DNA from: an uncultured Fibrobacterota bacterium
GTDB lineage: Bacteria; Fibrobacterota; Fibrobacteria; Fibrobacterales; Fibrobacteraceae
Direction of reading: 5' to 3'
DNA: 32,000 nt
NCBI GenBank assembly: GCA_903876665.1
Contig: CAIRAY010000133.1
Span: forward strand, 7,742 to 39,741
Each line of letters begins with the position of its first letter. Positions within the stretch are counted from its first letter, which is position 1. Positions 11,080 to 31,129 of this stretch are shown piece by piece. Under the pieces are notes generated by a model that saw nothing but the letters and a program-made list of their open reading frames with translations, made no database searches and was not told where the DNA came from. The translations under genes were made by a program, and so were the position numbers.

Positions 11080-11561
11080 GCAGTTGCTCCGAGGATTGCG
11101 CCAGCATTGAGGATTACTAGCGGGAGAGGGTCCAATCGAACCACACCTTCGACATAAGAACGGTATTGGGCCAATAGGTGAGAGGGGGCATCCTCAATAC
11201 GGGAAGGCTCAACCGTCACAATGTCCCCTACGGAACCCACAAGGAATCCGACGGGAATCGAACCCAAATAATCGAGGTCGAAATTTGGAGTATAGTCGGA
11301 AACAGCTTCGATCTCACTTGTGGTTTTGAGAATGATGATTTGGGAGTCGTCGGTGATCTGTTGTTCGGAGCCTCCCAGGCTTACCCGGAGGTCTAGTACC
11401 ACCACGACCTGGCCGCGAATGTTGACAACCCCGCTCACATCCCCGACTTTCAATGGCACGGGAGTAATGTGGACCGCAGGGGTAATTTCTTTTACTAGGC
11501 GGATGTCGAATCCGAAGAGTCCACCGGGTACTTGAAAAGAGACGAATTGTTGATGTTTCAT
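11076..11561 (-). CDS. cheW: CheW coupling protein
   Basis: FVSFQVPGGLFGFDIRLVKEI...VNIRGQVVVVLDL is typical CheW. The start is set at the internal ATG 11561, which forms an ATGA overlap with the cheA stop (11558-11560). The track's upstream extension would lie inside cheA. Confidence 0.85.
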   Translation of the reverse strand: MKHQQFVSFQVPGGLFGFDIRLVKEITPAVHITPVPLKVGDVSGVVNIRGQVVVVLDLRVSLGGSEQQITDDSQIIILKTTSEIEAVSDYTPNFDLDYLGSIPVGFLVGSVGDIVTVEPSRIEDAPSHLLAQYRSYVEGVVRLDPLPLVILNAGAILGATA

Positions 11562-14500
11562 GGTGAAAATTCCCGAACCCGCGCCAAAAGGGACTTCACA
11601 GCTTCGCCTAGCATAGGTAAGTTGCTTTTGGTACAAAAGTCGTCGAACCCTGCGTCCAGGGTGCGTGGCCGCATGATTTTTTCGTCCATGGCTGAAATCC
11701 CTAATAGCGGAATATGACTGAAGGCTTCGCTGGATTTAAGGTGCCGCGCCAAATCGAGCCCGTCCATGACTGGCATTTCAATGTCGCTGACCACGCAACT
11801 CACTTCGGTGTTGCGAATGATCTCCAGTGCCTCTTTGCCATTGTTTGCCGTGAGAACCTCGAGGCCGATTCCCCGCAGGTAGGATGTGACAAGGGCCCGA
11901 TAGAGGAAAGAGTCCTCAGCAAGAATGATTCGATTCGCTGCGGCATTGGGCATGTCCAACGAAGACATCCAGCCAGGTTCCACGATTTCAACCAGGGCGC
12001 AAAGGTCCAAAAGGGTAGTCGCGAACCCATTCACAATCTGAGAACCAATGATGGCAGCCTGGTCCGTGGAATGGATCAAATTGGCGTTTTCGACTTCCAC
12101 GATGCCAATGATACTGGAAGCCGCGATCCCCACAGGCTGGCCGATTTTGGGGATAATGACATGCAGGAATTCGTGGTCGTAGAGGGAGGATATGCCCGTG
12201 ATGGCTTGTTCGATGCGAACAAGGGGAATCAGGGAATTTCTGAAGCAAAGGAACTCACGCCCTCGAGCAATTTGGATTTCCTGAATCCGGATCTCATCTA
12301 CCCGCATCAGCAAGCTCAAGGGCACGGCAAATCGTTCTACTCCGTTAGTAAACACCAACATCTTTTGCTGTTCATCCTGGTTGGCAAGGACTTTGGTAGT
12401 CTGGGTTTCGGTCTTTTCGCAGCGGATTCCCCCGGTGCGGGCCAGCTCGGAAACATCTAGAATGAAGGAGGTGGTGCCATCTCCCAGAACCGTTACGCCC
12501 GCATATACCTTGCTCGCCTTGAGCTTGTCATGCAGAGGTTTGACAACGATTTCCTCTGTATCCACAATTCGCTCCACGCATAGGCCAAAGGTGTCGCTTC
12601 CGACGCGCAGCACGATGATGTAGAGGGCATTTTCCAATGCCACCCGCCGATCACGGATTTCTGCCCGCTTCCCGGTGTCGAATTCGCCTCCTTTTTGTCG
12701 GCGATCGGGAGCTTCCTCGCGACGATCCGCCACAATATCTCCGGAAATCGGATCAACGTAGGAGCGAGGGATGTTGAGAACCTTGGAAAGCCGGATAAGG
12801 GGAAGCATGTTTCCCCGGAGCCAATAGACTTCGCTCTCATCGATTTTCTGGATGCATTGGTATACCTCGTCTCCATGCAACCACACCACTTCGATGACAT
12901 TCACCTGGGGAACGGCAAAACACTGTTCCTCTACGGCGAGGATGATGGCTGGAATAATGGCAAGGGTCAGAGGGAGCTGAATGGATATGGTAGATCCGAA
13001 CCCGACCACGGAGGTGATTTCGACGATTCCACCCAATTTTTGTAAGGAGGCCCGGACCACATCCATCCCCACGCCACGTCCTGAAACTTCGGTGATCTGT
13101 TTTGCGGTGGAAAACCCGGGCAGGAATATGAGATTGAGGGCTTCGCGGTCCGAGAGGTCTTCCACCTGGGTTGGGGTCATTAAGCCTTTTTCAACTACGG
13201 CGGCCCGGATTTTTTTGGGATCGATTCCTTTCCCATCATCGGAAACCTGGATATTGACCAAGCCTGCTTGATGCTGGGCTACGAGCGAGATATGACCGAC
13301 AGCGGATTTACCACCCACTCTTCGCTCTTCGGGGGATTCGATTCCGTGATCTACCGCATTACGCACAAGATGCATCAAGGGCTCAACCATGCCATCGACG
13401 ATGCTTTTGTCCAGTTCCACATCGGATCCGCTGATGGTCAGTTCCATCTCTTTGCCCAGGCTGCGACTCAGGTCCCGAATCACCCGGGTAAACCGTCCAA
13501 ATACGCTTCCGATTGCCTGCATGCGGGTTCGCATGACGATGCGCTGGATGTCGGAGGTCACCACATTGAGGCGTTGGTTTACTGCAGAAATTTCGCGGGT
13601 ATTTCCGCTTGACTGCAACTGGGCCGAGCGGTTGCGGACCACAACCAGCTCCCCAGCAAGGTTCATGAGTTTGTCTGCAATTTCCACCGAAATGCGGACG
13701 GTTTGTTCCTGGGAGCGCGAGGCGGGCACCTGCTCCCGGGAAGTTGCAGGGACGGGTGGTTGTGGATTCGCCGTGACTTGGACTTTGGGTACTTCGATGG
13801 GTGGAGGCGCGCTTTCCGCCGGAGCGGGAAATTCTTCCGGCGTGTAATGAACAAAGGACAGCGGCTCGATTTGCAGCCCAGGAAACAGAAGGTCGGGATC
13901 ATCGATCATGGTGGCGAGAAGAAATGAGCAATCGGAAAAGGAAGGGGGAGCTGCAGTGAATGCGCTTGCTTCGGGTTTTGAATCCAGCAGGATTCCGAGG
14001 GATCCAATGGATTCATAGAGTGCAACAGGAGTGGCGGAGCTGCGGGAACATTCCTTATGGGGGTCTAGCAGGATTTCAAAAATATGCAAGCCTTGACTCT
14101 TGGCTTCGCTGGTGTCGTATTTTCGCAAATCAAAAATGGTGGCCGGCACCGCTTTGACGGGATTGGATTGGGGTGATGCGGACTGGGTGGGCTGTTGCGC
14201 AATCCTTTGCAGGTGCTGGAGGATTTGATCCACATCTCCAAGAACGCCCTTTCCGGATAAAATTCCACTTTTTAGCTTGTCCATTCCCTCAAGCAAAGTC
14301 TGGGTGATTTCGGAATTGGGCAAAAGGGTACCGTCTCGGAGCAGACCAGCTACGCTCTCCATGGCGTGGGCGAATTCCTTGACACGGTCGAAGTCCACGC
14401 AGGCTGCACCCCCCTTGATGGTGTGCAGAGCTCGGAACAGGCGGTTCACGGTCTCCTTGTCTTCCCCTGCGCCTTCTTCCAGGGCAAGGATATCCTCCTC

Positions 14501-14563
14501 GGCAGTCACCAGGTGTTCCTGTGCCTCGGTGATAAATTCCTTGATTAAATTGGCGAGATTCAT
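11558..14563 (-). CDS. cheA: Hybrid CheA histidine kinase: HPt, dimerization, HATPase, two CheW-like domains, C-terminal receiver
   Basis: HPt LFRALHTIKGGAA; N-box HLVRNAVDHGIE; G1 DDGKGID; G2 GRGVGMDVV. CheW-like 1 starts at QCFAVPQVNVIEV and CheW-like 2 at KMLVFTNGVERFAVPLSLL. Receiver: IILAEDS...VVSDIEMPVMDG...GISAM...FCTKS. Confidence 0.9.
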   Translation of the reverse strand: MNLANLIKEFITEAQEHLVTAEEDILALEEGAGEDKETVNRLFRALHTIKGGAACVDFDRVKEFAHAMESVAGLLRDGTLLPNSEITQTLLEGMDKLKSGILSGKGVLGDVDQILQHLQRIAQQPTQSASPQSNPVKAVPATIFDLRKYDTSEAKSQGLHIFEILLDPHKECSRSSATPVALYESIGSLGILLDSKPEASAFTAAPPSFSDCSFLLATMIDDPDLLFPGLQIEPLSFVHYTPEEFPAPAESAPPPIEVPKVQVTANPQPPVPATSREQVPASRSQEQTVRISVEIADKLMNLAGELVVVRNRSAQLQSSGNTREISAVNQRLNVVTSDIQRIVMRTRMQAIGSVFGRFTRVIRDLSRSLGKEMELTISGSDVELDKSIVDGMVEPLMHLVRNAVDHGIESPEERRVGGKSAVGHISLVAQHQAGLVNIQVSDDGKGIDPKKIRAAVVEKGLMTPTQVEDLSDREALNLIFLPGFSTAKQITEVSGRGVGMDVVRASLQKLGGIVEITSVVGFGSTISIQLPLTLAIIPAIILAVEEQCFAVPQVNVIEVVWLHGDEVYQCIQKIDESEVYWLRGNMLPLIRLSKVLNIPRSYVDPISGDIVADRREEAPDRRQKGGEFDTGKRAEIRDRRVALENALYIIVLRVGSDTFGLCVERIVDTEEIVVKPLHDKLKASKVYAGVTVLGDGTTSFILDVSELARTGGIRCEKTETQTTKVLANQDEQQKMLVFTNGVERFAVPLSLLMRVDEIRIQEIQIARGREFLCFRNSLIPLVRIEQAITGISSLYDHEFLHVIIPKIGQPVGIAASSIIGIVEVENANLIHSTDQAAIIGSQIVNGFATTLLDLCALVEIVEPGWMSSLDMPNAAANRIILAEDSFLYRALVTSYLRGIGLEVLTANNGKEALEIIRNTEVSCVVSDIEMPVMDGLDLARHLKSSEAFSHIPLLGISAMDEKIMRPRTLDAGFDDFCTKSNLPMLGEAVKSLLARVREFSP

Positions 14564-14580
14564 TCCTTCTCCGCCAAGAT

Positions 14581-16515
14581 TCAGGCAATAATTTTTAGGA
14601 CATCATTCAGCTTCTCGACATCGCTGGAGACCTGGTTAAGCGAGTTGAACATGTCTTGTATGTCTTCCGTGAAGGTCATGGCGGCGGTTTTGGATTGGTG
14701 CATGATTTCGGCTGTAGTCTCCGCCATGGAAAGGGTGCCGGAAATTCTTTCGTTCACATCCCCAATGGCCATTGCCGTACCTGCAATATTTTTCGCAACC
14801 ACATTGGCGCCTTGGGCGATTTCGTTGATGTTGTGCGAAACCTGCTTGGAGGCGTGGGCGGTTTCGGCAATCTGCCGAGCGATGGCACCTGAGCCGGTAG
14901 AGGCTTCGGAGATGTTGCTCGAAATATAGTTGGTGGCCAAGGTTTGTTTCTCCACCATATCCGAAATGACTTTCTGCAGGTGGTTGATGGTATCAATGAT
15001 GGACGAAATCAAGGCAATGGCGGAAACAGCCTTTTGAGTGTCGCCCTGAATTTTTTCGATCCGGGCCGTAATGTCTTCGGTCGCGGTTGCCGTTTGTTTG
15101 GCCAGCTCCTTCACTTCGTTTGCCACCACGGCGAAACCTCGGCCTGCGTCGCCGGCACTTGCCGCTTCGATGGCCGCGTTGAGGGCAAGCAGATTGGTTT
15201 GCTTGGCGATGACCTGGATTACGCTGGTCACTTTGCCGATTTCGTTGGCGCTTTTGCCGAGCATGCCCATGATTTCAGAAGTTTCCTTGGCTGCTACGGA
15301 AGCATTCCCTGCCACGGTGGTGCCTTCACGGGCATTTTGGGCTACGCTGTTGATTGCAGTCGAGAGGTCTTTTACTGCATTGTCCACAATGCGGAAATTG
15401 CTGGACATTTGTTCGGCGGTGGCGGCCACGGAAATCATGGTGGTGCTAATTTCTTCCGAGGTGCTCGCCACGGTATTGATGTTGGTAGAAATCTCTTCCG
15501 CTGCTGTAGCCACGGTGGAGATGGAGGAAGCCATTTTCTCGGAAGATGCCGTTAGGTCCTTGGTATAGTCCTCAAGAATTTTAATGGCCTCAATGCCGGA
15601 GCTAGTCTGAACATCATTTTCCAGAATGGTGTTTGCCATCTTTTCGGCTAAGGATTTCTGCTTGTCTGTCGAGGATCCAATGGCCTTGGCGCAGGTGGCG
15701 ATTTGTTGTTGCGTTTTGTCAATAAGCTGATTGAAAGCCACAAACAGTTCCCCTAACTCGTCTTGCGAGGTGACGGCAAGGTGCTTGGTTCCCGTTTCGC
15801 CATTGTTTTGGGTCACCAGGTTTTGTACATGGAGAATTGACTTTCGCAGAGGAACGGTGATGCTGATTCCAATGCGGTAGGAGAGAGCGAGGAGTCCGAG
15901 CAGGACCAGTATTCCAAAGCCAATTAGGCCCCGCAGAAAGTTTGCGATCATCTGGTTTGCGCTGGCTTCGGAAGCCTGATTGAGCTGGTTGGCCTGGATG
16001 ACGACCTGGTCAATGGCCGCCCGGTGGGCCTTGTATTGTGGCTTCAAAGACTTTTGCAAAACTTCCTGTGCCTGGGGGTAGTTCTTGGCTGCCAGAGCAG
16101 GTAGGAATTCCCTTTTCACGACAGCATAAAACTCCATGGCCGGTTCATAGGCCTTGTCCGTCATGGTCTCTTTTAATTGCCCATCTGGCAAGGCCCGTTG
16201 CCAAAACTTATTGCGGGTTTTGTATTCGGATTCCAGGCCTTGAAGTTTGTCCTTGAGGGCCTGGGATTCACGCGGATCCCGTTCATCCGCCAGCTGTTCG
16301 ACGGTCAGGTAGGACTCGATGATATATTCTGGTGGAGGGAGGATGTCGGCAATTAGGTCTTTTCCATTGACGATTTGTTGGTAAAGATCGCCGTTGATAC
16401 GCAGGGTCATGATTGTTTTGTAGGAGGCAAGGCCGAAAATGAGCAGTGCCGCCAGAGAAAAGGCCACAATTGCAGAAATTTTCCGGGTAATGCTTAAGCG
16501 GTTGAGAATAGCCAT
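14581..16515 (-). CDS. mcp: Methyl-accepting chemotaxis protein (two TM segments, ~165-aa periplasmic domain, HAMP, long signalling domain)
   Basis: Hairpin-tip motif [33 protein letters not shown]; HAMP around [19 protein letters not shown] at 16515 ([12 protein letters not shown]) is preferred over the track's TTG at 16584. GGAGAAGGA Shine-Dalgarno sits in the 17-nt gap before cheA. Confidence 0.9.
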
Positions 16516-16631
16516 GAGTGTTTCCTGTTTTCGGAATGATCTTTGAGGTGCGGGTATTCTACCACCAAAGCGGTTCAAAGTCAAGAGAATGGCCTGGGCG
16601 GGCTAGTAATACTGATGTTATCTTTGAAGGC

Positions 16632-17633: not shown

Positions 17634-17662
17634 GGGATGACCCTAGGAAAAACAAAAAAATA

Positions 17663-17684
17663 GCCCCGTTTTGGGGTTGTTTTT
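17663..17684 (+). terminator. Weak rho-independent terminator after trpS
   Basis: CCCC (17664-17667), 5-nt loop, GGGG (17673-17676), then TTGTTTTT. The stem is very short. Confidence 0.4.
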
Positions 17685-17687
17685 CTG

Positions 17688-17743
17688 CTTTTGCATGCCC
17701 GCCTGTCTTTGTCATGCCCAATTGCTTTGTCATGCCCGGCAGG
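17688..17743 (+). repeat. Three tandem copies (19/18-nt spacing) of CTTTG(T)CATGCCC, the last extending to TTGTCATGCCCGGCAGG
   Basis: CATGCC starts at 17694, 17713 and 17731. Same core as the repeats at 8675-8693 and 31862-31880. Confidence 0.75.
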
Positions 17744-17816
17744 GGCATCACCGCACCATTCAGCAATACTCTGTGATATGAGCCTGCCCCCGGAACAGGG
17801 GGTGCCGGGCATGACA
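17728..17816. repeat. Perfect 14-nt inverted repeat TGTCATGCCCGGCA / TGCCGGGCATGACA, 61 nt apart, enclosing a CCCCC-GGAACA-GGGGG hairpin
   Basis: 17728-17741 is the exact reverse complement of 17803-17816. The inner hairpin is at 17787-17802. Confidence 0.75.
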
Positions 17817-17985
17817 CATTTTATGCATCCCAATTTTCATATTTTGGGCCCCGTTTGCATTTTCAAGCATTTCCCCTGGGGCAAAAACCGATATCCTTGC
17901 AATCTTCGGGAAAATTGGGTATCTTGAGTGAAACGCTATTTTTAGCGGAAGTGATTCACTTTTCACAAGATAGGCGGTCTTTGCT

Positions 17986-19851
17986 TTGAAATTGCTTTCA
18001 ATTTTCCTTGCAGTTTTACTTGGGCTTTCGAGTCTGGGATTTGGCCAAGAGTCTGAAAAGGAACGCCGTTCCCGGCAATTCTCAGCTTATTATGAGTCAT
18101 TGGTAAACCAGTCGCTTACGCGGTATTACCATAACACCTCGTTCATGGTGGATGCCCGGGTGATCCTTGCCGAGCAATCCCAGGCGCTACCGGATTCCCT
18201 CGCCGCTGCCGTGGAGCCCGCAATTGAGCCTCCATCCCAAGCGGAATCTAACAACGAGTTCCGCAATCCCGATGGGCTCGAAGCCCTTCCTGGCCTTCCG
18301 GTGATGCCCGAACAAATGCGCACCGGCGGAAAACCCTTGTTCAATCTGGAGCCCGCCAAGGCCCGTTCCCCCGCTCCCAACCCAGTGACCCGCACGGAAC
18401 TTGGAATTGAGTACATCGACATTACGGTTCTGGTGGATACCGTGTACTCTCCGGAAGATGTGGAGTTCATCATGGAGCTTGTGGGCATGGTATCCAAATT
18501 GGATGATGCCCGTGGCGACCGGGTTTTTGTCCGTAAGAAGGTATTTCCTCGGATGTCCCGGGAGCTGGAATCCGAACACCGGGTCCGCAATGACAGCATG
18601 CCCCATCCTGTCGATACGGTTCATCTGGATTCACTTGCGGAGAAATCCCATCCTTGGAATGCCTATTGGGAGCAATTGCCCTCCTTGCTTCCCCTCTTGC
18701 TGATTCTGGTTTTTTTGACCGTGATTGTCGCTGTCGTGGTCCGGGGTTTGCGTAGCGCACAAATTCCACCCGAGCTGATCAAGCACCTGGAAACCTCGCG
18801 AATGCCCGTGATTCCTCCTGTGGTGGAACCGTCCAAGCCCATGCCACAAGCCCCCGAAGCTTTGGATCAGGCCAAGTTTGACACACAACGTACCGCCTGT
18901 TTGAATGCGCTCATCGGCGACCCGGTGGGTGGAGCCATGTTGCTCAAAAACTGGATTGAGGCCGACCGTTCTAAAGGCCTGAGCGACACTGCGGTATTCA
19001 TTGAATCCCTGGACACCAAGGTTCTGGAAATTCTCAAACCCCACTTCCAGCCCCAGGATCTGAAGGGCTTGCATTTGCAGATGGACGTGCAGACCATGCC
19101 TTCCCTCGAAGACCGCACCAGTCTTCTCCTTACCTTCCACAAGGAATTGCGCAATCTCCGGTCACGAAGCACGGACGGAACTATCGCCGATATTTTTGGT
19201 TTCCTTCATCAGCTTTCCACGCCTCAGCTCATGCACATTCTAAAAGACGAACCTGTGGGGATTGTGGGACTTGCCTTGGCGCAAATCCCGGGCGAGCGTG
19301 CAGGCCTAATTCTGCAACAAATGGAGCCCGACTTCCGCACCCAGGTTTTGGTGGCCATGGGTCAAATCGACACCATCCCCGTGCAAGCCTACAAAGAAGT
19401 CGCTAATCGCCTATCCCGCAAGGCTCTTGAGGTGGGGAACATGCGTTTTGTTGCTGCGGATGGCGTACAAACTGTTCTCGATATTGTTCAGGGTCTGGGC
19501 CTGGTGGAACAGGTGGAATACCTGCGTTCTATCGCCGAGCGCGACTTGAATTTGGCCGGTCGCCTGCGTCGGTTCTATGCCCTGTTTGAGGAAATTCCCT
19601 ATTTGCCCGAGCCCATTTTGGTCAAGGTTCTCAATACTTTCGAGCGGGAACAGCTCGTTTCATCCCTGGTGGGAACCGAGGCGGATTTCCGTGAAAAACT
19701 CTTGATGTCCATGCCTCAGAGATTCCGCATGGCTGTTGATTCGGGCCTGGAAAGCAAAATGGATCAGAGCCCTCTGGAAACCGAAAGAGCCCGCAAGCTT
19801 TTGCTTGGGCTTATCCGTCAAGAATTGCAGGCCGCAGGAGGTCGCACATGA
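17986..19851 (+). CDS. Membrane-anchored FliF-RBM-like / FliG-like fusion protein (putative rotor component)
   Basis: TTG start; the frame opens only at 17974 and the next ATG is at codon 54. It gives a good signal/anchor, MKLLSIFLAVLLGLSSLGFG. Periplasmic part: YESLVNQSL..FMVDARVIL and IEYIDITVLVD...DVEFIMELVGMV...DRVFV (ring-building-motif-like). TM at aa 231-254. Cytoplasmic aa ~296-621 match FliG along their length (see findings). Confidence 0.7.
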   Translation: MKLLSIFLAVLLGLSSLGFGQESEKERRSRQFSAYYESLVNQSLTRYYHNTSFMVDARVILAEQSQALPDSLAAAVEPAIEPPSQAESNNEFRNPDGLEALPGLPVMPEQMRTGGKPLFNLEPAKARSPAPNPVTRTELGIEYIDITVLVDTVYSPEDVEFIMELVGMVSKLDDARGDRVFVRKKVFPRMSRELESEHRVRNDSMPHPVDTVHLDSLAEKSHPWNAYWEQLPSLLPLLLILVFLTVIVAVVVRGLRSAQIPPELIKHLETSRMPVIPPVVEPSKPMPQAPEALDQAKFDTQRTACLNALIGDPVGGAMLLKNWIEADRSKGLSDTAVFIESLDTKVLEILKPHFQPQDLKGLHLQMDVQTMPSLEDRTSLLLTFHKELRNLRSRSTDGTIADIFGFLHQLSTPQLMHILKDEPVGIVGLALAQIPGERAGLILQQMEPDFRTQVLVAMGQIDTIPVQAYKEVANRLSRKALEVGNMRFVAADGVQTVLDIVQGLGLVEQVEYLRSIAERDLNLAGRLRRFYALFEEIPYLPEPILVKVLNTFEREQLVSSLVGTEADFREKLLMSMPQRFRMAVDSGLESKMDQSPLETERARKLLLGLIRQELQAAGGRT

Positions 19852-20972
19852 AGCGCTTGATTATTGCCCTTGCTCTTTTATGCGCCTGGCCCTCGTTTGC
19901 GGAAGACCTGAAGGCTCCGGCTTCCTCCAAAGAAAAGCAAAAAGTTCTTTTCTACGAAGACATGTACGGAAGCCGTACCGGCATCAAGCAATTCTATGAC
20001 ATCCTGAGTCAGATGCAGCGCGCCATCGGCGATCTTCCTCCCGACATCCAGCGCCTCGCCATGTACAATCTGCGTGTGGACCGCGATGACTTTACCCCGG
20101 GGATGATGAAGTTTTTTCAAGGAAAAATCGAAGAAACCTTTATCAAATATGGCCGCCGTCAGATCGTTGCCGCACCCGAATTGCGCTCCACTCGCATTGT
20201 TTCCACCGATACCTCCTTTGTCCTTTCCAATACCTTGCCTACCCAGAATGACCTGTGGAAAATTGGAGAAGCCTTGCGCCTGGACGGATTCATCGAAGGC
20301 AATTTAACCCGCAGCGAAATGGGGGATATTATGTTGAGCCTGAAGGTATTCCGCCACAAAAGCGCCGAGGTGGTGTGGTCGGGAAGCTTTGTCTCTGGGC
20401 CCAATGAGGATAAATACTATTTCCCCCTTATGGATATTGGAACTCGACTTTCCTTTGGCTATTGGCCGGTTTCAAAATACACGGATGAAACCGAAACTAT
20501 TCGGGAGCCGACCCTCAAATTGGACATGTACCAATACGCGGTGGAATTTACCGTGAGTGAAGCCGCAAATAGCAACCGGAGACTTTACTTGGGCGCAGCT
20601 GCTGGGCTAAGTTTTCTTTTCCCGGTGGCCGATAATCCCCGGGATTCCGTGGTGGGTGACTTGCCTTCGAACTGGGTGGGCATTGCTGGGGCCGATTTGG
20701 TGTATGTATTTGTTGCCAAAGAGAATTTTGACGATGGGTATTGGCTTGGGGCCTATTTAGGAATGCGGGTGTATTTCCCACAAAAATTGATCATCATCCG
20801 TCATGGCTACTCCAGTCGAATTTCTCGCCACTTCATTCTTTCCGCAGGGTTGCAATTCATGCCACTTCTCGATCAGCTGATTGCAAGCAAGTCTCTATTG
20901 TCCACTACGGGTGATTACGAGCTTAAACTGCAGAACCCTACCTATGAAGTGAGTATTCAGTATGCCTACTAA
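19848..20972 (+). CDS. Outer-membrane protein: periplasmic alpha/beta domain plus C-terminal beta-barrel
   Basis: AGGAGG Shine-Dalgarno and ATGA overlap with the upstream stop. Signal peptide MKRLIIALALLCAWPSFA. The N-domain ends in LRLDGFIEGNLTRSEMGDIMLSLKVFRHKSAEVVWSGSF (TolB-N/CsgG/LpoB-like pattern, low confidence). The C-terminal half has amphipathic strands ending YEVSIQYAY, an OMP-type terminal aromatic. Confidence 0.6.
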   Translation: MKRLIIALALLCAWPSFAEDLKAPASSKEKQKVLFYEDMYGSRTGIKQFYDILSQMQRAIGDLPPDIQRLAMYNLRVDRDDFTPGMMKFFQGKIEETFIKYGRRQIVAAPELRSTRIVSTDTSFVLSNTLPTQNDLWKIGEALRLDGFIEGNLTRSEMGDIMLSLKVFRHKSAEVVWSGSFVSGPNEDKYYFPLMDIGTRLSFGYWPVSKYTDETETIREPTLKLDMYQYAVEFTVSEAANSNRRLYLGAAAGLSFLFPVADNPRDSVVGDLPSNWVGIAGADLVYVFVAKENFDDGYWLGAYLGMRVYFPQKLIIIRHGYSSRISRHFILSAGLQFMPLLDQLIASKSLLSTTGDYELKLQNPTYEVSIQYAY

Positions 20973-21747
20973 TCCTTTTTGGTTGCCACGGATCCTGGGC
21001 CTAAGCATGGTCTGCGCTTTGGTGGCTTGCTCCAGCAATCCTCCCCAGGAAGAGGGCTACTTGCCTGGTTCCGCATCGGATGATTCCGCTGGCTGGGCCC
21101 AAACTCCGATCCGTCCCGTACAAAAGCAGAGACCCGTTTCGGGGATCACCATGACGTACCACAATGATGCGTCGACATTGCAGATGACGATTGACCCATA
21201 CGATGAAAATTTGAACATCGAAATGAAACGGAGTCCGCACACCCAAGAGGTGGCTGTTCCTGAAAAACCGCGCCGGGATACGGTCTTCATGATGTCCCCG
21301 CAAGCAGCCTCGGCTCCTACAAATGTATCGGTACAAGCTCCTCCGACTTCCGTGAATGTGCAATTACAGCTTCCTCCAGAGCGTCGGGATTCCTCCAAGG
21401 CGGTTCCAGCGATTGATACTGCCGGGCTCGGCCAAAAGCAGCTGGACCTGCTCAAATCCAAGGAGAAGGAATGGGCAGATGCGACCGATGAGGTGATCAC
21501 CAATATTCGTCTGGCCCAAGAATACTTCTACAAACAGGACTATTCCTCTGCGCTTCGTCTGGTAAAGATCGCAGAAGAAAAGCGCCCTACCGCCGAGGGA
21601 TATGCCCTGCGGGGAAGCATCATGTATATGTTGCGGGATAACGGCGCGGCCCGTTTTTACTGGAGCCAGGCTCTAACGCTCAATCCTAATCTTCCCGATG
21701 TAATCCAAGCGCTTTCCAAGCTGGATCAGACGAAGGAAGGTCGCTAA
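20962..21747 (+). CDS. TPR-repeat lipoprotein
   Basis: Lipobox LVAC|SS. ~150 aa of low-complexity P/S/Q-rich linker, then C-terminal TPR-like helices (AQEYFYKQDYSSALRLVKIA..., GAARFYWSQALTLNPNLPD). 11-nt overlap with the upstream gene. Confidence 0.65.
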   Translation: MPTNPFWLPRILGLSMVCALVACSSNPPQEEGYLPGSASDDSAGWAQTPIRPVQKQRPVSGITMTYHNDASTLQMTIDPYDENLNIEMKRSPHTQEVAVPEKPRRDTVFMMSPQAASAPTNVSVQAPPTSVNVQLQLPPERRDSSKAVPAIDTAGLGQKQLDLLKSKEKEWADATDEVITNIRLAQEYFYKQDYSSALRLVKIAEEKRPTAEGYALRGSIMYMLRDNGAARFYWSQALTLNPNLPDVIQALSKLDQTKEGR

Positions 21748-22562
21748 TGCCTCTTTCACTGTCCACTCTTGCCGGAGTGATTTTTGGAACCATTGTGGTG
21801 ATCTGGGGTATTTCCACTGCAACCACCAACACGAGGGCCTTTCTGGATCTGGGAAGTTTTTTGATTGTGGTGGGTGGAACGTTGACCTCGACATTTATCG
21901 GGTTCCGGGCCCGCTACATTTTTAAGGCGTTGCTCGCTCTTCCGCTGATTTTTCTGCGTCAGCGCATTAATCCAGAAAGCCTGCGTGATGATATTCGTAA
22001 GGTCATTGATTGGAATAAGCGAATTCAGGAAGGTGGGGCAAAGGCTCTGGATGTTTTGGCGACGGATTCGAAAGAGTCGGATTTTGTGCGTTACGTATTT
22101 GGCCTGGTCGCAACGGGATACAAGGAACATGAGGTCGAAGCATTTTCTACCACACAGATTGAGGAAGAATATTTCCGTGGCCTTCAGCAGCCCAATATTC
22201 TAGCCTACATGGCTGCTGCCGCCCCGGCTTTTGGAATGCTCGGTACTTTGATCGGTCTGATTGCGATGTTGGATAAATTGGATGATCCATCCAAGATGGG
22301 ACCCGGCCTTGCTCTCGCCCTGATTACCACCCTCTACGGAGTGATCGCTGCCCGCTTTGTCTTTTTACCTGCATCTACCAAGGTAAAGCAGATTTATGGC
22401 ATTCAGCGTTTTCGCAACTATTTGCTTCTCGAGGGGGTGGGCCTAATCATGCAGAAGCGGTCGGCCCTGTACATTCAAGATCGGTTAAACTCTTTTATGG
22501 ATACCAAGTATCGACTTTCGGTGCTGGATGAGAAGACCAGCCAAGCCAGCAAGTCCAAGTAG
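21747..22562 (+). CDS. motA: MotA/PomA-type stator proton-channel subunit
   Basis: 4-TM MotA topology: two N-terminal TMs, a ~95-aa cytoplasmic loop, then two TMs. Conserved prolines in AAPAFGMLGTLIGL and FVFLPAS. TAATG junction upstream. Confidence 0.8.
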   Translation: MPLSLSTLAGVIFGTIVVIWGISTATTNTRAFLDLGSFLIVVGGTLTSTFIGFRARYIFKALLALPLIFLRQRINPESLRDDIRKVIDWNKRIQEGGAKALDVLATDSKESDFVRYVFGLVATGYKEHEVEAFSTTQIEEEYFRGLQQPNILAYMAAAAPAFGMLGTLIGLIAMLDKLDDPSKMGPGLALALITTLYGVIAARFVFLPASTKVKQIYGIQRFRNYLLLEGVGLIMQKRSALYIQDRLNSFMDTKYRLSVLDEKTSQASKSK

Positions 22563-22568
22563 GTCTCC

Positions 22569-23249
22569 ATGTCTCTTAAGAGTCAACCCAATCGCTACCG
22601 CAATGATGAAGGATATGATTCTGCGGGCATGGATGAATGGCTGGGAACCTATTCCGATATGGTTACTCTGCTTCTCGCCTTCTTTGTTTTGATGATGGGA
22701 ATTTCGAAGGTGGAACCCGCATTGTGGGAATCCATGAAATCAGGTCTTCGTTCCGAAATTTCTGGCCAGGAAAAAGTAAAAACACCCCTCGCTGAAATTA
22801 AGCATGACTTGGATTCTCTTCTCTCGGTGGAGCAAGCCCAGAACCTGGTAAAAATTGAAATGACCCAAGAAGGGATTGTGATGAAATTTGCCAGTTCCGC
22901 CTTTTATCAGGCGGGAAGCGCCGAGGTCGGAGCCCAAGCCAAAGGGATCATGGATCGGGTTGTTGTTGCGATGAAGAATATCGATTATTACCCGTTTCAA
23001 ATTGATATTGAAGGGCACACGGACAATGTCCCCATACATACCGAACGATATCCCTCCAATTGGGAACTTTCCGTGTCTCGGGCAACCAACATCGTGAAGT
23101 ACATGCTCGCCCAAGGGGTTGCCCCCGATCGTCTCAAGGCGGCTGGTTACGCGGATACCAAGCCAATTCTCCCCAACCTCGATTCATTGGGGAAGGGAAT
23201 CGACTCCAATCAGGCCCAGAATCGGCGCATTGTCGTCCGTATTCATTGA
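22569..23249 (+). CDS. motB: MotB-type stator subunit with OmpA-like peptidoglycan-binding domain
   Basis: Single TM carrying the channel Asp (TYSDMVTLLLAFFVLMMG). C-terminal OmpA-like IEGHTDNVPI...SNWELSVSRATNIVKYM...GYADTKPI...NRRIVVRI. Confidence 0.8.
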   Translation: MSLKSQPNRYRNDEGYDSAGMDEWLGTYSDMVTLLLAFFVLMMGISKVEPALWESMKSGLRSEISGQEKVKTPLAEIKHDLDSLLSVEQAQNLVKIEMTQEGIVMKFASSAFYQAGSAEVGAQAKGIMDRVVVAMKNIDYYPFQIDIEGHTDNVPIHTERYPSNWELSVSRATNIVKYMLAQGVAPDRLKAAGYADTKPILPNLDSLGKGIDSNQAQNRRIVVRIH

Positions 23250-23260
23250 TTTTAAACGCC

Positions 23261-23977
23261 ATGCCCAGCCAATACAGCGAGCTTCATGGCGTTCATATTC
23301 GGAAGACCATCGAGAAATTGTGTCGTCGCATTCACGAGCGTTTTCCTGGGTCCGGACTGGGTGGAGTTGCTGCGGAGCTGGAGCAGGTTTCTGCGGAAAA
23401 TGAACGAGTGGTGAGCCAATTACAAAAGCCGATTTGGTGGCTGCGAGTGCTCACCGTGATTGCGATTGGCTCCTTGGTTAGCTTGTTTTCTTGGGTCGCC
23501 TTTCGGTTGGCAACCCTTGCGCTTACGGGTGCAGCGACTCTTTCCGACGTTCTGCAGGGCATGGATGCGGGCATCAATGAAGTCGTCTTTCTTACTTTGG
23601 CAATAGCCTTCCTGGTGTCTTTGGAGAATCGTATCAAGCGTGGCAAGGCCTTGCGCATCCTGCATAAATTGCGGAGCATTGCGCATGTGGTGGATATGCA
23701 CCAACTTACCAAGGATCCAGAATATCTATTATATCCCGAGGCTCCTTTGGCCAATTCTCCGGAGCGCTTGTTGGACCGACATCAATTGGTCCGCTACTTG
23801 GATTACTGTTCCGAATTGCTTTCCTTGACCGCAAAACTTGCCGCATTGCACGGGCAGTCCATGCAGGATGCCCAGGTGCTAGAAACGGTCAATGATTTGG
23901 AAAGCCTTGCTTCGGATCTCTCCCGCAAGGTTTGGCAGAAGATCTCCATCTTGAGATCCTCCGGCGATGGAAATTAA
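23261..23977 (+). CDS. Hypothetical membrane protein (helical N and C regions flanking a 2-TM hairpin)
   Basis: ATG at 23261 is the first start after the motB stop; the track's longer ORF overlaps motB. TMs IWWLRVLTVIAIGSLVSLFSWVAF and VVFLTLAIAFLVSL. No motif I recognise. Confidence 0.55.
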   Translation: MPSQYSELHGVHIRKTIEKLCRRIHERFPGSGLGGVAAELEQVSAENERVVSQLQKPIWWLRVLTVIAIGSLVSLFSWVAFRLATLALTGAATLSDVLQGMDAGINEVVFLTLAIAFLVSLENRIKRGKALRILHKLRSIAHVVDMHQLTKDPEYLLYPEAPLANSPERLLDRHQLVRYLDYCSELLSLTAKLAALHGQSMQDAQVLETVNDLESLASDLSRKVWQKISILRSSGDGN

Positions 23978-23980: not shown

Positions 23981-25075
23981 TTAGACATTGAAGAGGAAGT
24001 GAACGATGTCGCCGTCTTGGACGACATATTCCTTGCCTTCGGTGCGCATGACTCCGGCTTCTTTGGCACCGCCCCAGGATCCGTATTTGCGGAAGTCCGC
24101 AAAGGCGACCGTTTCCATGCGGATGAAGCCCCGCTCGAAGTCCGTGTGGATCACGCCGGCGCAGGCAGGAGCCTTCCAGCCCTTATGGAATGTCCAGGCG
24201 CGAACTTCTTTTTCACCGGCAGTGAAATAAGTCTGCAAGCCCAGAATGTTATAGCCGGTGCGTACCACTGTGTCGAGTCCACTCTCCGGCAGTCCGAGTT
24301 CCTTGAGGAATTCAGCCTTGTCGGCGGGTTCCATGGTGGAAAGCTCTTCTTCGATTTTTCCGCTGATGACAACGACCTGGGAGCCTTGGGCGTCGGCAAA
24401 CTTTTTAAGGGTATCCACATAGGCGTTGCCAGTGAGAATGTCTTCTTCTTTGACATTGGCGCAATAAAACAGAGGCTTGGCGGTGAGGAGAGCGAGCTCC
24501 TTGATGAGCTCCAGGCCCACATCGCCGGCGTCGATTTTGCGGGCGGGAACGCCTTTGCCGAGTTCTTCGACGATGTATTCCAATGCGTCAAGGCGGGCCT
24601 TGGCATCTTTGACACCTACGCGGGCATTTTTTGCTTCGGCAGGGCGACGCTTCTCCACGCTGTCTAGGTCCTTGAGAATCAACTCCGTCTCAATGATCTC
24701 CACATCGCGCAGGGGGTCGGTGGAACCATGAACGTGGATGATGTTTTCATCGTCGAAGCATCGCACCACTTCCATGATGGCTTCGCATTCGCGGATGTGG
24801 GTGAGGAATTGGTTGCCCAGGCCTTCGCCTTTGGATGCACCCTTTACCAGACCAGCGATGTCAACAAATTGGGTGACGGCCGGGAGGATTTGGCGAGGCT
24901 TGTGGACTTTGGCGAGCTCATCAAGGCGGCCATCCGGAACATTAACCATGCCCACATTGGGGTCGATGGTGCAAAATGGGTAATTGGCGGCTTCGGCGCC
25001 GGCATTGGTGATTGCATTGAAGATGGTGGATTTGCCCACATTGGGGAGACCGACAATACCGCACTTGAAACCCAT
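23981..25075 (-). CDS. ychF: YchF/Ola1-type ribosome-binding ATPase
   Basis: MGFKCGIVGLPNVGKSTIFNAIT P-loop, NYPFCTIDPNVG, C-terminal FERGFIRMETV. The 364-aa product from ATG 25075 is a typical length. Confidence 0.9.
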   Translation of the reverse strand: MGFKCGIVGLPNVGKSTIFNAITNAGAEAANYPFCTIDPNVGMVNVPDGRLDELAKVHKPRQILPAVTQFVDIAGLVKGASKGEGLGNQFLTHIRECEAIMEVVRCFDDENIIHVHGSTDPLRDVEIIETELILKDLDSVEKRRPAEAKNARVGVKDAKARLDALEYIVEELGKGVPARKIDAGDVGLELIKELALLTAKPLFYCANVKEEDILTGNAYVDTLKKFADAQGSQVVVISGKIEEELSTMEPADKAEFLKELGLPESGLDTVVRTGYNILGLQTYFTAGEKEVRAWTFHKGWKAPACAGVIHTDFERGFIRMETVAFADFRKYGSWGGAKEAGVMRTEGKEYVVQDGDIVHFLFNV

Positions 25076-25193
25076 AGAAACCTCACAAATTTTGAAGTCC
25101 AAATGTAGAAAATGCAACCGAGTCCCTGCGATGCCTCGTATTTCTGACATTATGATGGAAAATCTAGGGCGAATGAATGATTAGATTTCCCCC

Positions 25194-25994: not shown

Positions 25995-28900
25995 CTATTT
26001 TCTTTCCAGCAAAATCATGGGTGTCGTGGCGTCCAAAATGGATTCCCATTCCCTGCGGATTCCCTCATATTCCGATGCGTCCGCGTAAACCGACAGAGTT
26101 TCCCAGCGCATGCTGCTCGAGCTGTTCTGGGTTGTTGGCTTCTGGTCCAGCTGGATGTAATTCAGAGCATCCAACCCTTGGGATGCTTGCTTCAGTGAAA
26201 TCCCGAAACGATCTGGTCCACGGACCTTGAGGCTCCAGGAGAAGGTGGTTTCGTGGGGTAAGCGCAAGGGGTGATGGCGTTTGGTGATTTTGGGTAAACG
26301 CATGAAGCTTCTCTCCCAAATATTCGGGAACGCCCCTTGAATCCGGTCGGGACTCTGCCCAAAGTAATGAGCGGAAGTAAAGGTGACAATGAGGACCAGC
26401 GGTTTTGCAAATTCCTGCACGTTCTCTACTTTTAGGCTATTGATGGTGGCGTCAGGAATGGCTTGTTCGAGCCAGTTTGCGAGATAGCGGGTCCGTTCCT
26501 TTTGATCGCGGGAAATCATTTGTGCGCGCATGGCCGAGCCAAATTTGCCAAATAGAGTCAAGCTATCACGAAATTCGGCTTTTCCGGTGGAGTCGATGTA
26601 GAGGCTATGAGCGATGAAGGCTTGGTGTTCCTGGTCTTTTTCGAGAACCGGAGTCACGGAAATTTGAGAAGAATCCCCGTTGATGATTAGCGAAACCTTG
26701 CCTTCCAGATCTAGCGCAATGGGTCTGCGCGCTCCAGCCTTGTCGGTAGGATCTAGCCAAAGATCAGGCCAGTTTTTGCCTGCAGGCACATAGAGGACCA
26801 TGTGGTTGAACTGTTGTATGGTGGGTAAGGCCTCCGAGCCTGGTTCCTCCAAATTGACCAAGGCCATGCGGGACTTGATTCCAATGGTTTCCAGCATTTC
26901 CTTGAGGAGGAGGGACTGATCCTTGCAGTCGCCCTGGCGTTCGTTCAGGGTTGCCAGGGAAAGACTTGGAATCAAGGAATGCCCGCCAAAGGCGATGTCG
27001 CGATAGCGGATGTTTTCGCGCACCCAATCCGCCATGCGGAATATGGTCTCTTGATCGAGGGCGCGGCTACCACGTACTTCAAAGGCCTTTTCCCGTACCG
27101 GAATACTGGATTTAAACTGGTGCTGGATCATGTTCTGGTAATCCCGTCCCACCTGTTCCCAGCTCTGTTTTCCGGCGATCAGGACTCCCGCCCCGAAATC
27201 CCGGTAAACGGGCATAAATACTTCCTTGCGAATGACCACGGGAGCATCCACCGTCCATTCGATTCCACCCGGAACAGCCATTCTTTCAATGGGGCCGTAT
27301 TCTTCGGTAACGATGCTCGAGGTGTCGGTCAGCAGACGCAGAATGTCTTTGCCCACGGGAATGTCCTGTGAAGCCATGTGATGGGTGAAAGGAATCACCC
27401 CGGTATTTTCAATGCTGGTGCGGGAGACTTGAAAATAGATGAAGTCCCCGGGCTTGAGGTCGGTGAGGGGAAGGTGTGCCATTTGGGCATCGCTACCCGA
27501 TCCAGCCTCATTGAGGTAGGTGATGTATGCCTCTTTCACCGACCAGCGGGTTTTGAGCTTCCAACTGGAATCATAGACTTCAAGCGCATTCACAAATATG
27601 CGGTCGAATCCAGGGAGGAATGTGTAGGTAAATTCCTGGAAGAGGCCTGCGCCCCGCGGATCCAAAATCTCGATGAGGGCTTGCTGGGTACGGATCCAGG
27701 ACGCATTCTTGTTGGTCTTGAGAGCCTCTTCCTGCCAGTGGACCACGGCGGGAAATTCCTCGGCCCGGGCGGAATCGACGAGTCCCGCCTTCAATTCATC
27801 CTTCAGGTTACGGGGGCGGGAAACCACGGGTTCAATGGTGGCTTGCAAGGCCCGGATGTCCGCTTTTCCCAGAAACGCCTTGGTCGCGGAAAGGAAACTT
27901 TTCGCATCTTCATCGTCTGGCTTCAGTTCCAAAGCCTTATGCAGGGTGTTCTCTGCCATGCGGAATTGTTTCAAATGGAACTGGGTCTTCCCGCGGGCAT
28001 TCCAAACTTCAAAATTGTTGCTGACTTTGGGAAGTAATTCATCGGAGATGGCCAATGCCTCCTGATGTCTCCCCAAGAATGTGAGCGCATCGATTATGGC
28101 AAGTCCAATATCTTTGTTCAGAGTGAAACGACGTTTTACCGAATAAAGAAGATCCACCGCCTCTGAGTATTGATCGAGGCCCATCAAGGTTTTTGCGACA
28201 TATACGCCAAGCCGTGCCGAGGGTTGCTTGCGGTAAAGACCTTGCACGATCTCCAAGGATTGGGTGCGTTGGCCGATACCCCAAAGGGCGTCCGAGGTGT
28301 TGATCACCAGCTCGGGATCATGTGGGCTATATTGGAGTGCCATCTCATAGTATTGTAGAGCCCGATTGTAATCATGCAGCGATTCGTACATTTCGCCCAG
28401 AATCGCAAGCAGCTTTCCGCTCTTTTTGATCAAGTCGATTTGGGATAGGAAATGGTCTGTTCCCGGGCCGAATAAATTCCTCATTTGGTAAACAAATCCA
28501 CAATTGATCAAATACAAGGGTTCGGAAGGATCCATGTGGTTTGCTTTTTCAAAATAGGACAATGCGACCAGAGGCTGATCTTCGGCTAGGCGCAACAAGC
28601 CGACTTGATTTACGATGCGTGCGTTGAATTGTTGCAGGCGGGCCTGCTGGGGGAGACCTCCGGCCGGAACGGGCTCCAGCTTGAGACCATCAAGGGCGCG
28701 GTCAATCGCTTTGCGGTATCCACCGGCCAAAGAATTTTGGGTCCAGGTCGCGATCAGGATTCCGCGCCCATTTTCGTAAAAGAATCGTCCCCGATAAAAG
28801 AAGTCATAGCCACTGATCAGGCGGACGCTTTGGAAATCCTGGGTGAATACGTCCCCACTGCCTTTTTTTGTGGTTTCGAGATCGGGCGAGTCCGGGTCGA

Positions 28901-31008: not shown

Positions 31009-31119
31009 GGGACTACAAAAGCTAAAGGCGAGTATATATTTCTTCTACTGGGTCCAACTTTCCCAGAATTTCCTTGAAACTGACTCCTGGTTTGCGCATA
31101 ATCAAATCAGACACACCCT

Positions 31120-31125: not shown

Positions 31126-31129
31126 CTGT

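Follow-up and report, generated by a model that had tools for sequence, protein, structure and literature searches.

A conserved gene cassette encoding a FliF-FliG fusion and a flagellar-type stator pair in Fibrobacterota and other bacteria

Layout of the locus

The subject of this report is a 32,000-nucleotide stretch of DNA (the window) from an uncultured Fibrobacterota bacterium (GenBank assembly GCA_903876665.1, contig CAIRAY010000133.1, positions 7,742 to 39,741 of the forward strand), which carries six plus-strand open reading frames (ORFs), g1 to g6, within positions 17986-23977. Analysis of the encoded proteins and their homologues showed that g1 to g5 form a conserved cassette in which a natural fusion of a FliF ring-building motif to a full-length FliG-like module is accompanied by a flagellar-type stator pair and two outer-envelope proteins. 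A sequence-only reading of the window had reported six same-strand genes, closely joined and flanked by housekeeping genes. The ORF check and the public gene calls on identical contigs agree with its coordinates and junctions, and annotation of the immediate neighbours bears out trpS, ychF, and gap as the flanks. The genes and the upstream boundary are as follows.

17986-19851, + strand: g1, 621 amino acids (aa); 4-nt ATGA overlap with g2
19848-20972, + strand: g2, 374 aa; 11-nt overlap with g3
20962-21747, + strand: g3, 261 aa; 1-nt overlap (TAATG) with g4
21747-22562, + strand: g4, 271 aa; 6-nt gap to g5
22569-23249, + strand: g5, 226 aa; 11-nt gap to g6
23261-23977, + strand: g6, 238 aa, two transmembrane (TM) segments, no family
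17656..17684, + strand: terminator-like hairpin, 13 pairs plus a T run, 3′ of trpS; upstream boundary of the cassette

The gene block is bounded on both sides, upstream by the hairpin after trpS and downstream by the convergent ychF, which begins 3 nt after the end of g6. The hairpin is strong, and with this boundary upstream, the cassette should carry its own promoter in 17685-17985. A scan of the gap upstream of g1 for sigma-70-type promoters gave no match, and the promoter type of this phylum may differ. An Rfam scan of the whole window gave no match either. The longest ORF of ychF (23981-25150, − strand) encodes 389 aa compared to 364 aa in the public call on an identical contig, and its true start is probably an internal Met just 5′ of the GTPase motif.

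The first gene fuses a FliF ring-building motif to a full-length FliG-like module

The g1 protein is a natural fusion composed, in order, of the third ring-building motif (RBM3) of FliF, interrupted by an insertion, an equivalent of the second FliF TM helix (TM2), and a full-length FliG-like module; RBM1 and RBM2 are absent. We propose that it is a rotor subunit. Its parts are listed below.

17986..18042, + strand: g1 aa 1-19, N-terminal hydrophobic segment, a signal peptide or TM1 equivalent (hydropathy; helix 2-18 in the model)
18055..18537, + strand: g1 aa 24-184, periplasmic alpha-beta-beta-alpha-beta ring-building motif (AlphaFold2 model, Foldseek, hhalign)
18187..18387, + strand: g1 aa 68-134, insertion where FliF has its beta-collar, variable and of low confidence (predicted local distance difference test score, pLDDT, <50)
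18286-18309, + strand: LPGLPxxP motif, g1 aa 101-108, with L101, P102, G103, L104, P105, and P108 invariant in the 19-homologue alignment
18676..18756, + strand: g1 aa 231-257, TM helix equivalent to FliF TM2 (model and hydropathy)
18853..19836, + strand: g1 aa 290-617, full-length FliG-like module with N-, M-, and C-like helical domains
19714..19785, + strand: g1 aa 577-600, torque-helix equivalent; R579 corresponds to Escherichia coli FliG R281, and S586/G587 to D288/D289

The methods used concur on the FliG-like module, which the sequence-only reading had already called full length. First, Pfam matched g1 to FliG_M (PF14841; 4e-10, 40.2 bits against a gathering threshold of 25) and FliG_C (PF01706; 5.5e-11, 43.1 bits against 23.3). 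Both domains scored above gathering in all 19 members of the g1 family, and FliG_N was found in 14 of 19. Second, a family profile, built as an alignment of 19 homologues, recovered FliG structures from the PDB (1lkv at 3e-29), 8umd_B matched profile positions 304-607, and the profile extends over Salmonella FliG 22-319. Third, a Foldseek search with the AlphaFold2 model of g1 aligned 313-334 columns to full-length FliG (3hjl; 8umx_B, E 3e-8). Finally, hhalign matched g1 to E. coli FliG 108-320 with a probability of 98.4. The FliG equivalog models were nevertheless missed by g1 (TIGR00207, 62.4 against 226.7 bits; NF004260, 20.6 against 550). The FliM-binding EHPQ motif is not conserved; in the hhalign alignment, E. 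coli DEHPQI pairs with DEPVGI. This agrees with the finding that the window and the examined loci encode neither FliM nor FliN.

The periplasmic part also answers to a feature predicted from the sequence alone, a ring-building motif, which Foldseek, hhalign, and the family's Pfam matches identify with FliF RBM3. In Foldseek, more than 15 FliF RBM3/collar structures were matched with a probability of 1.0, a target template modelling score (TM-score) of ∼0.55, and E values of 3e-3 to 5e-2; for 6sd1_A, for example, these were 1.0, 0.55, and 6e-3. By hhalign, g1 aa 139-188 corresponds to E. coli FliF 372-430 (E 1.2e-5, probability 81%), including the RGD..V...F motif, and YscJ_FliF_C (PF08345) was detected in 14 of 19 g1 homologues (best, 3e-7). 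In the model, a 65-residue low-confidence insertion follows the first strand of the motif. In Salmonella FliF, residues 228-270 and 382-438 make up RBM3, and the collar (271-381) separates the two segments (PMC8270960). The g1 motif is thus split at the insertion point that matches FliF RBM3 and has the same topology as Salmonella FliF. Only one such motif is present in the ∼210-aa periplasmic part before the TM helix, and g1 has no match to PF01514, the SctJ-homology region made up of RBM1 and RBM2. In FliF, these two motifs form the inner M ring, which is thought to accommodate the export gate (PMC8270960).

The g1-type family is rare, as judged from sequence searches. When the periplasmic domain was used as a query against 1.84 billion representatives, 56 clusters were found, nearly all of ∼580-680 aa and of the same architecture, and canonical FliF was not recovered. 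A second search with the g1 profile in a 5.8-billion-protein set found no further members. No public record of the exact g1 protein sequence was found (a look-up of g2 led to the identical contigs), and the best named relative of g1 is a protein of a Fibrobacteraceae bacterium with 64% identity. Public labels of g1 homologues are "flagellar motor switch protein FliG," "FliG C-terminal domain-containing protein," or "hypothetical protein"; the first of these is carried by homologues P0012, P0022, P0023, P0025, P0031, P0033, P0042, and P0051.

g4 and g5 encode a divergent flagellar-type stator pair

The fourth and fifth genes encode, by their profile matches, a PomA/MotA-type and a MotB-type subunit, respectively, forming a flagellar-type stator pair that is divergent and not orthologous to any named stator, since all equivalog cut-offs were missed. 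The relevant features are as follows.

21747..22562, + strand: g4, stator A subunit with four TM segments, a cytoplasmic TM2-TM3 loop, and both conserved prolines
within g4, + strand: Q94 and D102, at the positions of PomA R88 and E96 (E. coli MotA R90 and E98)
22656-22658, + strand: g5 Asp30, channel Asp in the single TM helix (SDMVTLLL), which aligns with the MotB/PomB TM helix
22902-23171, + strand: g5 aa 112-201, OmpA-like peptidoglycan-binding domain (Pfam)

The g4 protein matched MotA_ExbB (PF01618) at 1.8e-21 and 76.7 bits. Among NCBIfam models, MotP, PomA, and MotA were matched with E values of 1e-25 to 3e-36, compared to 6e-4 for TolQ and 0.04 for ExbB, the latter two scoring 14-20 bits (TolQ, 19.7 against a cut-off of 221). 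The best equivalog, MotP, was missed at 125 against 394 bits. All ten PDB matches of g4 were flagellar stators, with PomA (4.9e-27) and MotA of Clostridium sporogenes as the best relatives. By these profile and PDB matches, g4 is nearer to flagellar stators than to TolQ/ExbB. It aligns end to end with PomA 2-252, and its APAFG and FLP segments align with the TM3 and TM4 prolines, which are conserved. At the positions of PomA T158, T185, and T186, g4 has Thr, which we presume to be tied to Na+ use; this is a lead only and not a test. The g5 protein matched MotB_plug (48.6 bits) and OmpA (55 bits) in Pfam and MotB in the PDB (1.6e-31), aligned with C. sporogenes MotB and PomB, and fell below its equivalog cut-off (155.6 against 283 bits). 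Hydropathy predicts four TM segments in g4 and one in g5. The MotA-like topology with both prolines and the MotB-like channel Asp with an OmpA-like anchor, as read from the sequence, were therefore confirmed, and profile and structure searches with genes 1, 4, and 5 recovered FliG, MotA, and MotB.

g2 and g3 encode outer-envelope proteins reminiscent of Tol-Pal

Between the putative rotor and stator genes lie two genes for which an outer membrane barrel and a tetratricopeptide repeat (TPR) lipoprotein had been predicted. Both predictions held, the first by modelling and Foldseek and the second by a lipobox and a TPR_2 match.

19974-20396, + strand: g2 aa 43-183, alpha/beta domain of TolB-N/LpoB-C/PelC-like fold (Foldseek)
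20433-20966, + strand: g2 aa 196-373, 8-stranded OmpA/OmpW-like outer membrane barrel ending in ...YAY (Foldseek)
21019-21030, + strand: g3 aa 20-23, lipobox LVAC, lipoprotein signal
21475-21720, + strand: g3 aa ∼172-253, C-terminal TPR domain (TPR_2 above cut-off)

The g2 protein is predicted to be secreted, with a signal peptide followed by two domains, and gave no family match in Pfam, NCBIfam, or PADLOC. In Foldseek, its alpha/beta domain matched the C-domain of LpoB (4q6z, target TM-score 0.70), the N-domain of TolB (4pwz, E 5e-6), GNA1162, and PelC, and its barrel matched OmpA (1bxw), OmpW, OprG, and Ail. The beta-propeller of TolB is absent from both the model and the Foldseek matches. 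In g3, the lipobox is followed by a ∼140-aa Pro/Ser/Gln-rich linker and then the TPR domain, for which only generic designed TPR proteins were found among solved structures.

These two proteins bring in an alternative that the sequence-only reading had itself offered, a Tol-Pal-like envelope system. In its present form, this would be a Tol-Pal/Ton-like force transducer in which a Mot-type 5:2 unit drives g1 as an inner membrane adaptor replacing TolA/TonB, with relay to g2/g3, and which serves outer membrane tethering, constriction, or lipoprotein and outer membrane protein homeostasis; we regard this as unlikely. The likeness is real in several respects. Tol-Pal, too, is encoded by an operon in which a 5:2 inner membrane motor is linked to the outer membrane and peptidoglycan; the TolB N-domain and LpoB are among the structures matched by the g2 N-domain; g3 resembles lipidated CpoB, a lipidation signal being reported for most CpoB proteins of non-proteobacterial origin (PMC12204202); and g5 has a Pal-like OmpA domain. 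In addition, many envelope systems are powered by 5:2 motors, and more are expected (PMC12204202). However, the stator is of the flagellar type and not TolQ/ExbB, and the cassette has no TolA-like protein. Apart from the TolB-N-like fold, the elements in common with Tol-Pal are limited to the TPR lipoprotein and the OmpA domain. For the periplasmic half, the alternative keeps some weight. The driven partner, a FliG-bearing ring subunit with the torque-helix Arg and a ring motif, has the geometry of a rotor rather than that of a TolA/TonB-like rod, and g2 lacks the TolB propeller. A separate TolB-like protein has been described from Balneolaceae, one of the carrier groups, which may thus have a Tol-like system of their own.

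The five-gene order is conserved across at least four phyla

A genome scan yielded 60 loci with g1 homologues and a metagenome scan yielded 43. In all 80 informative loci, defined as those extending at least 5.6 kb past the g1 start, g1-g2-g3-g4-g5 occur in this order on one strand; these loci derive from Fibrobacterota, Balneolaceae, KSB1, and an Elusimicrobia-labelled contig. The genome-scan loci come from metagenome-assembled genomes (MAGs) of Fibrobacterota and from many Balneolaceae, including Gracilimonas tropica DSM 19535 and Balneola sp. EhC07. Three loci, on Elusimicrobia-labelled, KSB1, and deep-branching Fibrobacterota contigs, were examined by Pfam annotation of gene calls, and on these all five proteins are recognisably homologous. 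The order is therefore kept across at least four bacterial phyla. Between distant loci, g1 identity falls to 26-35% with many columns invariant, and the cassette ORFs are intact. The five genes are inherited as one unit, in an arrangement far beyond chance.

The sixth gene does not share this conservation. No g6 homologue was found beside the cassette in ∼100 other loci, which means that the conserved unit is g1 to g5 and rules out g6 as a sixth core component; conservation of the arrangement in relatives holds for five of the six genes. g6 itself was found only on contigs of the same organism, and the sole Pfam match, SPACA9, is below threshold and probably spurious. In the window, g6 is probably co-transcribed with the cassette as a lineage-specific addition outside it.

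Conservation also bears on the idea, raised from the sequence alone, that the genes are the leftover of a flagellar locus. A decaying remnant with no current function might be expected in Fibrobacteraceae, which are inferred to have lost flagella. However, the ORFs are intact, the order is identical in 80 of 80 loci and four phyla at 26-35% g1 identity, many columns are invariant, and g2 and g3 are not flagellar genes. We consider a remnant very improbable and effectively excluded by this conservation.

The surroundings of the cassette vary. When the ORFs in the flanks of the 60 genome loci were clustered and representatives were read by eye, they looked like housekeeping genes, which differ between lineages (RpoB/C, SMC, methylmalonyl-CoA mutase, MeaB, SufE, PBP1C, alpha-2-macroglobulin, a TonB-dependent receptor, and others). 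This context, syntenic and unlike a defence island, argues against a Zorya-like anti-phage system built on a MotAB-type motor, to which we give hardly any credence. A weak match of g5 to ZorB models (61 bits) is what any MotB would give. The PADLOC scan found no ZorA, and this generic ZorB/MotB match was its only relevant hit; g4 had none, and there was no ZorC, ZorD, or ZorE. Moreover, the PomA-like g4 is short, at 271 aa, and lacks a long extension. Zorya and other defence systems were rejected on these grounds.

Some neighbours recur or differ in ways worth recording. trpS lies upstream of the cassette also in a distant Fibrobacterota locus (L065) and in L002. A 1263-aa protein with TPR, DUF3857, and transglutaminase-core domains is encoded two genes downstream of the cassette in the window (25995-29786, − strand), and a 1253-aa TPR and transglutaminase-core protein is encoded directly 3′ of it in L065 (15221-18982). 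Deep synteny or a functional link may account for this; the gene is absent from Balneolaceae loci. In the Elusimicrobia-labelled locus (L063, 5641-9773), a CHASE2-Ser/Thr kinase, a PP2C phosphatase, and an FHA/YscD-like protein lie directly upstream on the same strand as the cassette and may regulate it in that lineage.

Residues at the predicted rotor-stator interface

In E. coli, MotA R90 contacts FliG D288/D289 and MotA E98 contacts FliG R281 (PMC12505986). The equivalent of R281, g1 R579, is invariant in 55 of 55 window-plus-locus sequences and is Lys in the KSB1 homologue (L064). At its partner position, g4 residue 102, Fibrobacterota have Asp or Glu. The equivalents of E. coli FliG K264 and R297 are not conserved in the g1 family. 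The equivalents of the other pair differ between clades as follows.

Fibrobacterota, including the window: g4 94, Gln (8/8); g1 586, Ser or Gly; g1 587, Gly (13/15)
Balneolaceae: g4 94, Lys/Arg (41/41); g1 586, Ser; g1 587, Glu (40/40)
Elusimicrobia-labelled locus (L063): g4 94, Thr; g4 95, Lys; g1 586/587, Asp-Glu
KSB1 locus: g4 94, Gln; g4 95, Arg; g1 586/587, Ala-Ser, no acid

The equivalents of R90 and D289 thus appear to vary jointly between clades, as a physical contact between MotA and FliG would produce; the pattern is suggestive.

These residues are also where a role other than that of a motor has to be considered, in which the g1 ring is a static scaffold or a sensor of ion-motive force or envelope stress, MotAB is a gated channel, and the FliG-like module is a docking surface. 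One classical charge pair is missing in the window clade, and signalling genes lie near some loci (a CHASE2-cyclase-PilZ protein in the window; the CHASE2 kinase, PP2C, and FHA genes in L063). Yet conservation extends to the torque-helix Arg, the prolines of the stator, the channel Asp, and the plug, the interface residues covary between clades, and the motor parts are strictly inherited together with two proteins of the outer envelope. We give a non-motor role a slim chance.

No flagellar genes were found near the cassette

Among window ORFs of at least 150 aa, there are no flagellar structural or export genes, and in the loci that were examined, none was found in the ∼10 kb around the cassette (flanks, not whole genomes). 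The cassette is carried by G. tropica DSM 19535, a cultured type strain that is described as non-motile and has only 17 genes in category N of the Clusters of Orthologous Groups (COG-N), too few for a flagellum; motility is absent from most species of Gracilimonas. According to the literature, Fibrobacteraceae have neither flagella, which are inferred to have been lost, nor chemotaxis genes, and other Fibrobacterota have both.

The statement that nothing flagellar lies nearby needs one amendment. It holds for structural and export genes among the large ORFs, and it passed over a complete chemosensory operon (8766-16584, − strand), 1.4 kb upstream of the cassette, as well as a pilin-like gene.

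14581-16584, − strand: methyl-accepting chemotaxis protein
11558-14563, − strand: CheA with CheW-like and C-terminal receiver domains
11076-11636, − strand: CheW
10030-11079, − strand: CheB
9152-10030, − strand: CheR
8766-9164, − strand: CheY-like single-domain regulator
31007-31810, + strand: type IV pilin-like protein with an N-terminal methylation motif

The che operon is linked to the cassette in no other locus, the weak "CheA" matches seen elsewhere being unrelated sensor-kinase-type genes; it is therefore a neighbour and was rejected as a part of the cassette. Its presence is unexpected if the host belongs to the Fibrobacteraceae, given the reported lack of chemotaxis genes. Together, the pilin-like gene and the che operon suggest pilus-based behaviour in the host.

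Could the cassette nevertheless belong to a genuine flagellum, providing the host's actual MS/C-ring and stator, or a second set of them, while the other flagellar genes are located elsewhere and g2/g3 act as scaffold or bushing in the manner of MotX/MotY, FlgT, or PflA/PflB? Known motors do include periplasmic TPR/Sel1 stator scaffolds, and FlgT has a TolB-N-like domain; many non-Fibrobacteraceae Fibrobacterota are predicted to have flagellar genes, Balneola vulgaris is flagellated, and the chemosensory operon is close by in the window. Against this, g1 lacks RBM1/RBM2 and a conserved EHPQ motif, the loci examined show no flagellar gene within ∼10 kb, the cassette is found in non-motile G. 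tropica with its few COG-N genes, and the che operon is unlinked to it elsewhere. A genuine flagellum is quite improbable in our judgement. The missing RBM1/RBM2, the differing flanks, and the occurrence in G. tropica also argue, indirectly, against a host regulon that is complete except for fliF, fliG, and motAB.

A proposed flagellum-independent rotor-stator

We therefore favour, with a probability of roughly 0.55, the reading that g1 to g5 encode a self-contained flagellar-type rotor-stator which has neither filament nor switch and works mechanically on the envelope. The predicted topology spans the envelope, from the FliG-like part in the cytoplasm through the ring domain at the inner membrane and the peptidoglycan-anchored stator to the lipoprotein and the outer membrane barrel. 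In a more specific form, which we hold tentatively and at somewhat less than even odds, the cassette is a flagellum-independent rotary nanomachine in which a FliF(RBM3)-FliG ring is spun by Mot-type stators and its work is used via g2/g3, and which arose either by minimisation of the flagellar rotor-stator or as a surviving relative of a form older than the coupling to type III export.

By analogy with the flagellar motor, such a machine may work as follows. As FliF does in a ring of ∼33-35 subunits, the g1 protein would oligomerise through its ring-building motif into an inner membrane ring that bears, in a 1:1 ratio, a crown of FliG-like torque domains on its cytoplasmic face. Peptidoglycan-anchored stators, MotA5MotB2 by analogy, would conduct H+ or Na+, push on the FliG-like torque helix, and turn the ring. 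The motor would have no direction switching, because FliM/FliN are absent and the EHPQ motif is not conserved, and having no RBM1/RBM2, export gate, or rod, the g1 ring could not build a flagellum. More speculatively, the LPGLPxxP insertion on the periplasmic face of the ring, together with g2/g3, may pass work to the periplasm or the outer membrane or may act as a bushing, and the output could be envelope maintenance, movement of surface components, or another task. Coupling of inner membrane energy to the outer membrane is plausible, since g2 and g3 resemble Tol-Pal components in the TolB-N-like fold and the lipidated-CpoB-like TPR, respectively.

Several points weigh against this proposal. 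First, the FliF part of g1 is the less secure one: the window's own g1 gave no PF08345 match at E ≤ 0.1, and the Foldseek E values to FliF, though consistent from hit to hit, are marginal (at the level of 6e-3 and weaker). The models of g1 (monomer, pLDDT 74.5, predicted TM-score [pTM] 0.35) and g2 (monomer, pLDDT 79.9, pTM 0.50) were built on shallow alignments of 19 and 16 sequences, respectively. Second, at the interface, the window clade lacks one of the two classical charge pairs (g4 Q94; g1 S586/G587), the KSB1 locus breaks the R90-D289 covariation, and that covariation is drawn from few independent lineages. Third, some carrier groups have flagellated members (B. vulgaris; non-Fibrobacteraceae Fibrobacterota), and the absence of flagellar genes refers to the window and the inspected flanks, the source and carrier genomes not having been scanned. 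Finally, ring formation and the MotA-FliG contact are argued by analogy. The self-contained ion-driven machine envisaged in the sequence-only reading thus retains its parts and their co-inheritance and is still the best reading, with rotation, the ring, and the output as its inferred elements.

Comparison with known systems

The flagellar motor core (FliF, FliG, and MotAB/PomAB) and the cassette share the same four protein families, and the likeness extends to the split RBM3, the full FliG fold with the R281 equivalent, a PomA-like 4-TM g4, and the MotB plug, Asp, and OmpA domain of g5. However, in the cassette, FliF and FliG are one polypeptide from which RBM1/RBM2 are absent, there are no nearby FliM/FliN, export, rod, hook, or filament genes, EHPQ is not conserved, and the scores fall far below the NCBIfam equivalogs (FliG, 62 versus 227 bits; MotP, 125 versus 394 bits). 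The cassette is also always accompanied by g2 and g3, and it occurs in a non-motile bacterium.

The nearest described object is the FliF-FliG fusion of Chlamydiaceae, a protein of ∼330 aa with RBM2, one further RBM, and a FliG_M-like region only (PMC4768692). There too, a shortened FliF is fused naturally to a FliG-like region in hosts that are not thought to be flagellated, whereas the SpoIIIAG-like RBM3 domain is missing and no association with MotAB is described (PMC4768692). The g1 protein is the converse, with RBM3 only, a full N-M-C FliG, and MotAB always beside it. Engineered or spontaneous FliF-FliG fusions of Salmonella and Vibrio show that a covalent 1:1 chain can assemble into rings, and the fusions 8z4d and 8z4g are among the PDB structure matches of g1. 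Those fusions contain full-length FliF within a complete flagellar system, whereas g1 is minimised and lies in a separate cassette.

Other machines share one aspect each. In ExbBD-TonB, GldLM of type 9 secretion, AglRQS gliding, and ZorAB, ion flow in the inner membrane likewise powers work in the envelope (PMC12204202, PMC12505986), but their A subunits are of the "GIT" clade (non-flagellar) or of the Zorya type and their partners are not FliG (PMC12505986). The cassette, by contrast, pairs a stator that is PomA-like by profile and PDB matches with FliG outside a flagellum. The SpoIIIAG sporulation ring resembles g1 in having a ring-building motif with a collar-type insertion in a large, non-flagellar, periplasm-like ring; it has no FliG and no stator, belongs to another phylum and function, and was not recovered among the matches here. 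No description of the cassette was found in the full-text literature searched. What is new is the architecture of the cassette, its gene set, and its non-flagellar context, the protein families being already known.

The only role of FliG known to us is to receive torque from MotA in the flagellar rotor. If the proposal is true, FliG would for the first time be seen to serve as a rotor outside a flagellum, and the flagellar rotor-stator module would have a second, filament-free use. A recent survey regards flagellar-type stators as a clade bound to flagella (PMC12505986). The cassette would also bear on the evolution of the flagellar motor, on whether secretion or rotation came first, and on the possibility of a rotor-stator that has no export apparatus. 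With one rotor gene and two stator genes, the cassette would be a very small system for studying torque without a switch complex. It is within experimental reach, the carriers G. tropica DSM 19535 and Balneola sp. EhC07 bearing strain rather than MAG designations. In addition, the public FliG labels on g1 homologues could mislead or inflate genome-based predictions of motility in Fibrobacterota and Balneolaceae.

Other genes in the window

At lower coordinates than the chemosensory operon, a three-gene run on the minus strand (1290-5958) includes a single protein that combines a CHASE2 sensor, a class III nucleotidyl cyclase, and a C-terminal PilZ domain, a fusion of cyclase and PilZ that is, to our knowledge, unusual. 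These and two further genes are listed below.

3676-5958, − strand: CHASE2-cyclase-PilZ protein
2909-3679, − strand: FecR-like protein
1290-2912, − strand: 540-aa protein with no family
6161-8479, − strand: family 8 polysaccharide lyase with all three PL8 domains
41-1279, + strand: protein with a Fib_succ_major domain (Fibrobacter succinogenes major domain), which supports a Fibrobacterota origin of the window

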